Virus record (IMG/VR): IMGVR_UViG_3300009073_000018
DNA length: 64,000 bases
Source of the DNA: a virus
Direction: 5' to 3' (one strand)
This document shows positions 61,965-62,786 of the stretch, in pieces (the first letter of the stretch is position 1; each line of letters starts with the position of its first letter). Below the pieces are notes generated by a model. It searched no databases. It was not told where the DNA came from and worked only from the letters and a program-made list of their open reading frames with translations. The position numbers were made by a program, and so were the translations under genes.

Positions 61965-62786
61965 CATTGTTGTTATCGTAGTTTTTTTAATTACTACTTC
62001 TATATATTTCTATATAGATCAGACTATATCATATTCTTATTTACAAAATTTTCCTGCTCAGATTAGGTATATTTAAATATTTTTAGTATATTCCTTAATG
62101 AATAATATTAAAAAAGAACAAATTAAAGAATTGAATTCCTTAGGGAAAACAGATTCTGAAATAAGTAGATTATTAAATATATCTTCTAGTTCAGTAAATT
62201 ATAACAGAAATGCTATGAATTTACCTACTAATTTTAATCATAGAACCTATACTTCTGAATACGACAGAAAAAAAGGTTATATCATGAGAAATATTAGGCT
62301 TTCTTGTAAAAGAAGAGCTTTGGAATTAGATTTAAATCATACAGATTTTGAATTACCAGATACTTGTCCTATATTAAATATTAAATTAAAATATAAAGGA
62401 GAAGGTTCAGGTAATGATCATAATCATGCTACAGTAGATAGAATAGATAATTCCAAAGGATATATAAAAGGAAATATCATAATCTTATCTAGATTAGCGA
62501 ACTCCATGAAAAATGAAGCTTCTTTTGATGAGTTAATTTTATTTTGTAAAAATATACCAAAATTAATTGATACATATAAGAACCAGGGCGCTCTTGGGAG
62601 TTTTACTGACTGTTTTCCTAATACTTTTATAAGAAAATTTAGTCTCGACTCCTAGTCGTTGCACTTTTAAAAAAATCACTTTTTTCACTTAGCTCAGGAT
62701 TATCTACAACATTACTTGTTTAGATTTTCCCTGAATCCACCCCGTGTTTTTAATTATACGTCACCGTATAACTGGGCTACACATTA
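61965..62786 (-). mobile_element. Group I intron (822 nt, IA2-like) nested in the C26 gene inside the polA intron
   Basis: GGU|UAA 5' site; P1 GGGU/GCCC; P10 UGUGU/GCACA; P2 with GUGA loop; P/Q UUCAGG/CCUGAG; R GUGCAACGACUA; S AUGAUAUAGUCU; P8 UUCUUAU/AUAAGAA; terminal G. Splicing restores GICRG-AQF. Confidence 0.92.
62098..62655 (+). CDS. HNH-type homing endonuclease with N-terminal HTH, antisense within the nested intron
   Basis: CPILNI…TVDRIDNSKGYIKGNIIILSRLAN..K; the only credible + strand gene in the - block. Confidence 0.88.
   Translation: MNNIKKEQIKELNSLGKTDSEISRLLNISSSSVNYNRNAMNLPTNFNHRTYTSEYDRKKGYIMRNIRLSCKRRALELDLNHTDFELPDTCPILNIKLKYKGEGSGNDHNHATVDRIDNSKGYIKGNIIILSRLANSMKNEASFDELILFCKNIPKLIDTYKNQGALGSFTDCFPNTFIRKFSLDS

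Follow-up and report, generated by a model that had tools for sequence, protein, structure and literature searches.

We analysed a 64,000-nt stretch of viral DNA (IMG/VR virus record IMGVR_UViG_3300009073_000018; hereafter the window), in which a glutamine amidotransferase (GATase) gene of the peptidase C26 family is divided by an 822-nt insert on the minus strand (61965..62786). This insert is very probably a mobile, self-splicing group I intron seated in the codons of the GATase nucleophile elbow, GICRG|AQ; that it actually splices, and that the endonuclease it encodes is active, we infer from sequence. The stretch was traced to one DNA sequencing run, a marine metagenome that may be its source, and to no RNA run. 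The split gene lies in turn within a 4094-nt sequence (59442..63535, minus strand) that interrupts the DNA polymerase gene polA. We consider it probable that this outer sequence is a single group I intron spliced in cis, in which case the inner intron would be nested within it.

The split amidotransferase gene and its intron

Exon 1 of the GATase gene (62787..63050, minus strand, as are all window features below unless marked otherwise) holds 88 codons and ends in GICRG with a GGT codon, the last base of which, U62787, is also the U of the U.G pair in helix P1; the codon that follows is TAA. Exon 2 (61602..61964) contributes 120 codons and a stop. It begins GCA CAA TTT at 61964 (AQFITVMNGG), directly after the final intron base, G61965, and contains the FHPE motif; the downstream open reading frame (ORF) as called by the program, 61967-61602, starts with MAQF. 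The two halves were collinear on protein profiles: in Pfam Peptidase_C26 the N half matched positions 56-114 (46.7 bits, cutoff 20.5) and the C half positions 116-219, the latter scoring weakly on its own (13.7 bits for C26 and 17.8 for the Pfam GATase profile), and in phrog_7218 ('glutamine amidotransferase') they occupied positions 4-88 and 90-194 of 203. An uninterrupted 240-aa homologue is found in L003, a 104-kb IMG/VR viral contig, at 5659-6381, where it reads LGICRGAQFITVMNGGKLIQHV; in the alignment to it, the N half from the window stops at G114 and the C half begins at A115. The collinear profiles and this alignment together imply that excision of 62786-61965 would restore the gene without adding or removing a residue, giving a 208-aa protein with the junction GICRG|AQF, in which GICRG and FHPE are both present. 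The two ORFs are the halves of one 208-aa peptidase C26/class I GATase, and the predicted Cys/His/Glu triad is intact in the joined enzyme. The GATase has a start codon of its own and stands as an independent gene.

To detect the intron core, we cut away the ORF that the insert contains and scanned the two remaining pieces separately with the Rfam model RF00028. The 5' piece, 62796-62620, scored 35.9 bits (E 4.8e-8) over model positions 1-185, spanning P1, P2, P4-P6 and P7, and the 3' piece, 62032-62002, scored 20.5 bits (E 0.0016) over positions 221-251, spanning J8/7, P7' and P9. By blastn, 62736-62653 is 77-83% identical to introns of Staphylococcus Twort-like phages (Twortvirinae). Several points weigh against this reading. 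Rfam at its gathering threshold gave no match over the whole window, each of the two RF00028 halves stays below the 50-bit gathering cutoff, the Rfam alignment leaves P3 unpaired, and the insert boundaries (...GGGGUU...intron...AUGG CACAA) carry a 1-nt ambiguity, UU...GG. Rfam in E-value mode on 58500-64000 likewise gave no group I match. Rfam misses the intact intron because a 535-nt insert in loop L8 splits its core.

In the fold that we propose, P1 pairs exon GGGU with the guide GCCC (62790-62787 with 62777-62774), placing U62787.G62777 at the splice site, and P10 pairs the guide UGUGU with exon 2 GCACA (62783-62779 with 61964-61960). A P2 hairpin with a GUGA loop (62754..62771) is present in four of the eight members of the intron family described below and absent in the others. 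P3 joins CGGGGUG to CGCCCUG through seven pairs (62744-62738 with 62590-62584). The P4-P5-P6 domain extends over 62661..62734 (P4, 62734-62729 with 62699-62694; P5, 62725-62702; P6/P6a, 62693-62662), and P7 is formed by GACUA and UAGUC (62657-62653 with 62026-62022). Between P7 and the 3' strand of P3 stands a 56-nt composite hairpin of the P7.1/P7.2 type (62597..62652), with GGAGU/ACUCC, GACU/AGUC and an apical stem. P8 (62583-62576 with 62040-62033) covaries in all eight family members, and the L8 loop (62575-62041; 535 nt) holds most of an HNH gene. P9 (62017-62000) was placed from the 3' piece of RF00028 and from the family comparison; it is followed by P9.1 (61997-61978) and then by the tail GAUAAC...UG and the terminal G61965.

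The P7.1/P7.2 hairpin with its compensatory changes, together with the 77-83% identity, suggests that this Twort-like core fits subgroup IA2, to which we take the Twort introns to belong. Other placements of two helices were tried and rejected. A P8 formed through UUCUUAU (62634-62628) uses a segment that in the relatives is part of the local P7.1/P7.2 hairpin. A 3' strand of P3 was sought after the ORF or at ACUCC (62601-62597); ACUCC pairs with GGAGU (62652-62648), with two compensatory changes. An earlier note on this DNA had joined the two ORFs into one C26/GATase, with removal of 62786-61965 giving GICRG-AQF, 208 aa and an intact triad. Pfam and PHROG collinearity and the intron-less L003 homologue agree with it, and its coordinates proved exact. 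The helices P1, P10, P2, P7 (GACUA/UAGUC) and P8 and the terminal G that it named were all recovered here, and the relatives strengthen them.

The HNH gene (62098..62655, plus strand; 185 aa) runs antisense to the intron and would encode an HNH/endonuclease VII-like homing endonuclease. Its ORF matched phrog_3322 (endonuclease, E 6.9e-25), phrog_1035 (endonuclease VII, E 2.1e-13) and phrog_3118 (HNH, E 3.6e-11), and found no match in Pfam. The last ~27 HNH codons (62576-62655) are the complement of the 5' strand of P8, the 3' strand of P3, the P7.1/P7.2 hairpin and the 5' strand of P7; the P3 strand 62590-62584 is antisense to the codons for QGA, and the stop codon is the complement of 62655-62653, within P7. 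Compensatory helix changes that fall opposite HNH codons comprise a synonymous Gln CAG/CAA change at P3 and one C-terminal Ser/Tyr change, and RNA structure is therefore kept on top of the coding sequence.

Since the HNH gene lies on the opposite strand, it would need a promoter of its own. A Bacteroidetes-type TAnnTTTG promoter motif stands 28-39 nt upstream of the HNH start in four of eight copies, which is a hint only; upstream of the HNH start in the window this motif had no match, the nearest sequence being TATATTTA, with A for the final G. The sole plus-strand terminator-like hairpin of the region (62583-62597, plus strand) falls inside the HNH coding sequence. It is complementary to the 3' strand of P3 with the adjoining flank, and probably arises as a by-product of ribozyme structure.

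The intron family and the choice of splice sites

The HNH protein has 204 homologues in metagenomes. In all nine loci that were looked up, the homologue lies antisense between N- and C-terminal Peptidase_C26 fragments, and in eight of the nine it is accompanied by genes of an amidoligase cluster (COOH-NH2 ligase, GGACT, ATP-grasp and GATase_6). Searches of viral contigs for related loci, with the HNH protein and with polA exon 2, returned no relatives. We read seven further distinct intron sequences (L004, L005, L007, L009, L012, L014 and L015), which with that of the window make eight family members. A GATase had been singled out as an unusual host for such an intron; it is not a one-off, since the same intron splits the same gene in every relative examined.

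P1 has a U.G pair at the splice site in all eight members and tracks the exon (GGGU/GCCC, CGAGGAU/GUCCUCG, AGAGGGU/GCCCUCU and UGGGAU/GUCCCA), while P10 tracks exon 2 (GCACA/UGUGU, CUCAG/UUGAG, CACA/UGUG and AUGUA/UACAU). P3 occurs as CGGGGUG/CGCCCUG or CAAGGUG/CGCCUUG, and P4 as UCAGGG/UCCUGA, UCAUGG/UCAUGA or UCAGAA/UUCUGA. P6a, P8, P9 and P9.1 vary in sequence and keep their pairing in every member; P7, GACUA/UAGUC, is invariant across the family. We counted covariation formally over the 5' part of seven members, and compared P7 and P8, which span the ORF, separately in per-helix tables. In the formal count, 88% of cells were paired, against 39-50% with the partners slid; pairs changed on both sides numbered 15, against 2-6 in the slid controls; and the covariation score was 0.300, against 0.065-0.138. 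None of 500 shuffles attained the observed covariation values. P3, P4, P6 and the outer helix of the P7.1/P7.2 hairpin were each 100% paired, with one double change in P3 and two in the outer P7.1 helix. The 3' end is built alike throughout the family, an arrangement that places the 3' splice site: P9 is followed by a P9.1 hairpin and by a GAUAAC-type tail whose last base is G, and the exons would then join in frame as G(A/S)Q.

Between loci, the HNH proteins are 54-64% identical and the host exons 26-44%, as expected of an element that moves horizontally between diverged alleles. The junction is G-S-Q in L005, L007, L012 and L014, and G|A-Q in the window, L004 and L009; in L015 the intron is located 7 nt upstream, at GI|CRG. 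Three insertion points are in use in the family, all inside an 8-nt segment of the nucleophile-elbow codons, and two of them lie a single base apart. The UU...GG boundaries in the window illustrate how such a 1-nt slide of the insertion point could originate.

Some observations on individual relatives stand apart from these comparisons. The L007 intron (3050-3200, minus strand) has a ~110-nt insert in P5 with a T-arm-like GGUUCGAUUCC motif, in which ARAGORN found no tRNA. In L005 and L015 the split C26 gene is followed, after a few hundred bases, by further mobile-element genes, at L005:668-1408 (GIY-YIG and NUMOD domains) and L015:1131-1748 (NUMOD1), and this neighbourhood appears to have been invaded repeatedly.

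The ambiguity at the boundaries allows for splicing one base further on, after U62786 and with G61964 as the terminal base, which would give GICRG-S-QF, not GICRG-A-QF. Either choice leaves a U before the intron and a G at its end, and the four G-S-Q relatives are unambiguously in the shifted phase. We nevertheless give this shift little credence. Group I cleavage follows a U.G pair, and U62787 forms such a wobble with G62777, whereas U62786 makes a Watson-Crick pair with A62778; P10 has 5 bp in the Ala version and 4 bp in the Ser version; and the intron-less L003 homologue has Ala at that position. We also considered the equivalent of the Twort terminal G, G62000, and rejected it: it would give GICRGK-stop, ending translation after a single codon, and in none of the family members is it used in frame. 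That dead end, and an ATG exactly at the junction in the window, could be read in favour of an altogether different history, in which the HNH-bearing insertion broke the GATase and left a dead gene or two fragments, with exon 2 translated from ATG 61967. We find such a history scarcely credible. The ATG is not conserved, the relatives reading TTG, AAG or TCG in its place, with the first in-frame start well within exon 2, and no Shine-Dalgarno-like sequence is visible upstream of ATG 61967. Since a start codon at the junction is lacking in most relatives, the ATG of the window would be incidental and the C half would require splicing. Compensatory changes moreover maintain all the ribozyme helices in 7-8 divergent copies, P10 follows the exon 2 sequence, and the P9.1 hairpin and GAUAAC tail that precede the frame-restoring G are kept throughout the family, all of which argues for an intron that splices.

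The intervening sequence in polA

In the window, the break in polA falls at motif B. The last residues of exon 1 are ...KALNFA, its last base being U63536, and conserved sequence resumes at 59441 with (L)AYGGNS, so that the intervening sequence is preceded by a U and has G59442 as its last base, with NFA|LAYGG as the predicted junction. An uninterrupted polA reads RFAMSYGGN across this point, and the junction in the window is seamless. The downstream ORF has its first Met after 69 conserved polA exon 2 codons, which are not preceded by a start codon. The 4094 nt hold six co-oriented ORFs, the split GATase included. A stem of 63473-63459 with 61078-61065 encloses a cargo loop (61065..63473) that contains a 136-aa ORF (63047..63457), the split GATase and a 176-aa ORF (61075..61605). 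Neither of these small ORFs belongs to a known family; the stop of the 136-aa ORF overlaps the GATase start (ATGA), and the start of the 176-aa ORF overlaps the GATase stop (ATGA).

Two related loci bear on the nature of this sequence. In L017, a compact group I intron occupies the same polA site, in the same exon context and with a near-identical P1/P2 (100.6 bits, E 3.6e-25). L016 has the same dispersed layout as the window, with five colinear islands that are 88-100% identical between the two and non-homologous ORFs in between. The islands correspond to P1-P2; the 5' strand of P4, UAACGGGGAAA; P4'-P6, CAAUCCCGUGCC; P7, AGAGACUG; and J8/7-P7'-P9, GAGACAGUCC. The outer P5, which encloses a 106-aa ORF in the window and a 97-aa ORF in L016, and the outer P8 differ in sequence between the two loci and pair in each, and the outer P7 differs from that of the inner intron at a single pair, a difference that, as the earlier note suggested, may limit cross-pairing between the two cores. 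The stem that closes the cargo loop consists of 10 bp and 4 bp, and its 4-bp extension covaries with L016 (UUAU/AUAA in the window, UUCU/AGAG in L016), where the same stem closes a loop with one unrelated 210-aa ORF.

The location of the GATase gene is peculiar to this phage. In L003 and in the intron-bearing relatives with recognisable neighbours, the C26 gene lies inside or beside the amidoligase cluster. The window has such a cluster at 52488-45786, with COOH-NH2 ligase, GGACT, ATP-grasp and GATase_6 genes, and no C26 gene was found in it; the copy in the polA intron would therefore be a displaced member of that pathway. Only in this phage, among the relatives compared, does the C26 gene sit inside a polA intron.

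We judge nesting of the inner intron in a cis-spliced outer one to be probable and put it no higher, because Rfam misses the outer core in the window and because P3 could not be located. The evidence against it is as follows. Rfam found nothing on the cut pieces 60715-61075 and 59425-60095 of the outer sequence; a search for the outer P3 produced no convincing candidate; covariation in the outer intron comes from two sequences only, those of the window and L016; and a group I intron of 4.1 kb with six ORFs would be extreme. In the L003 contig (G001) neither a family A polymerase nor, by Rfam, a group I intron was matched, and the contig is hence uninformative on the outer intron. The core that Rfam does not find, the absent P3 and the great length with six ORFs would all sit comfortably with a real inner intron inside an outer sequence that is not spliced in cis, either because two half-introns splice in trans or because polA is made as two polypeptides, the cassette then being intergenic cargo; the long-range stem could equally serve as a handle for association in trans. 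We think this rather unlikely. With 69 conserved codons and no start, polA exon 2 would not be translated on its own. The minus strand has no terminator-like site between the polA exons, nor any until 3 nt past the polA stop, and the ORFs, all in one orientation, are closely packed. At the very same site L017 carries a compact cis intron, and the core islands follow one another colinearly in the canonical order.

Nesting within a cis-spliced polA intron, which we prefer, would be of a particular kind. The earlier note had placed the GATase within an outer group I intron and called the arrangement twintron-like. The location inside the 4094 nt that split polA stands, while the outer group I core in the window went undetected by Rfam. 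As for the comparison with twintrons, it holds in a loose sense only: the inner intron splits a passenger gene, the GATase cargo, not the outer ribozyme, and interrupts no outer core island.

Two further ORFs in the outer sequence may not be real genes. The 106-aa ORF (60724-61044) lies inside the outer P5 and crosses the P4'-P6 and P7 islands, and the 184-aa ORF (59449-60003) stops 7 nt short of the outer 3' splice site. No family match was found for either ORF, nor a homologue in L016 or L017. In L017 (5448-7143), polA is interrupted more than once, with a break after ADYSSQ (motif A) followed by a P2-like hairpin, and a weak second RF00028 match (6322-6427, 31.4 bits) lies upstream of the canonical intron at 7143-7431. 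L016 has a match resembling a type-P1 twister ribozyme at 2517-2568 (minus strand; 43 bits against a cutoff of 67.2, E 2e-6), in the gap that separates a very large ORF from the following gene.

Proposed mechanism, known systems and significance

In the mechanism that we propose, an external guanosine would attack after U62787, at the U.G wobble of P1 (GGGU/GCCC). The terminal G61965 would dock next, with P10 (GCACA/UGUGU) aligning exon 2, and exon ligation would yield the mRNA for the 208-aa enzyme. The endonuclease presumably cuts intron-less C26 alleles and so spreads the intron, and the family is seated in the same motif of the same gene in many related metagenomic phages, in which that gene belongs to a phiEco32-type amidoligase cluster. 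In this phage, the C26 gene and two translationally coupled small ORFs would have moved ~10 kb, and the moved gene would now reside in the stem-closed 2.4-kb loop of a 4.1-kb group I-type polA intron, with two splicing layers acting on one primary transcript. We lean slightly towards a broader reading, in which the polA intron has a 'cargo slot' with exchangeable content, an unrelated 210-aa ORF in L016 and a three-gene operon here. The slot would in this phage have captured a metabolic gene of the amidoligase cluster along with that gene's own mobile intron, and one transcript would need two hierarchical ribozymes to give both a DNA polymerase and an amidotransferase.

The inner intron resembles those of the Staphylococcus Twort-like phages in its core (77-83% identical), in a nearly identical J8/7-P7'-P9 segment, in the same P7 (GACUA/UAGUC) and in extra hairpins between P7 and the 3' strand of P3. 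The Twortvirinae introns themselves score 73-104 bits in Rfam. They interrupt the gene that follows the one for the tail sheath (annotated as tail tube protein in Twort itself; orf142), whereas the host here is a GATase, and the window phage is a marine metagenomic one, not a member of the Herelleviridae. The window intron differs further in an added P9.1 hairpin and a 13-nt tail, which bring its splice site 35 nt past the Twort-equivalent G. The Silviavirus copies L001 and L002 are compact (226-292 nt) and match Rfam over their full length, whereas the window intron has a 535-nt L8 with an antisense HNH gene.

An endonuclease gene opposite to its intron has a precedent in the nuclear rDNA group I intron of Didymium iridis, with its antisense homing endonuclease gene I-DirII (PMC3073962). 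There too the gene lies opposite the intron RNA and needs its own promoter; however, that case concerns eukaryotic nuclear rDNA, with Pol II expression, a spliceosomal intron and a poly(A) tail, and ours a phage protein gene and an HNH endonuclease. An ORF whose 3' end overlaps the complement of P7, P7.1/P7.2, the 3' strand of P3 and P8 is found, of the two, only in the window. Twintrons have been described mainly for group II introns, with group II/III cases in Euglena and group II cases in Thermosynechococcus and Methanosarcina (PMC3073962, PMC2504315). They share with our case a self-splicing intron within the boundaries of another. In classical twintrons, however, the inner intron splits RNA domains of the outer one or the gene for an intron-encoded protein, whereas here it splits unrelated metabolic cargo. 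Because this cargo gene sits in a peripheral loop, removal of the inner intron is probably not needed for folding of the outer one.

Among phages, SPO1/SP82 and Bastille are known to have group I introns in their family A DNA polymerase genes, going by works cited in PMC10580990 (refs 42-43), and crAss-like phages are rich in group I introns within core genes (PMC7886860). As in the phage polA introns, the break made by the outer element falls in a conserved catalytic motif of polA, and a LAGLIDADG gene is among what it carries; as in the crAss-like phages, introns are numerous in the phage group to which the window contig belongs. Published phage polA introns are compact and have one endonuclease ORF, in contrast to the 4.1 kb, six ORFs and dispersed core of the outer element. 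PMC7886860 mentions neither an amidotransferase host nor nesting. Full-text literature searches turned up no report of an intron in a GATase or amidoligase-cluster gene. To our knowledge, phage group I introns come almost only from replication, nucleotide-metabolism and structural genes, with their endonuclease genes on the same strand. The inner element is a family-level variant of such introns, set apart by an unusual host gene and by an antisense endonuclease gene that overlaps the core.

What we describe is a whole intron family that specialises in one accessory gene of a phiEco32-type peptide-ligation cluster, an amidotransferase, at its catalytic elbow. In metagenomic phage genomes, annotation will wrongly report C26 genes split by these introns as two fragments. 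Within the family the same bases are constrained as protein and as ribozyme, the HNH C-terminus being encoded on the complement of four core helices, with compensatory changes visible. If the outer sequence splices in cis, the window would hold a natural intron within the cargo of another intron, in which splicing order, long-range folding over 2.4 kb and gene carriage become testable. And if the cargo-slot reading is true, a group I intron would act as a vehicle for genes other than those of endonucleases.

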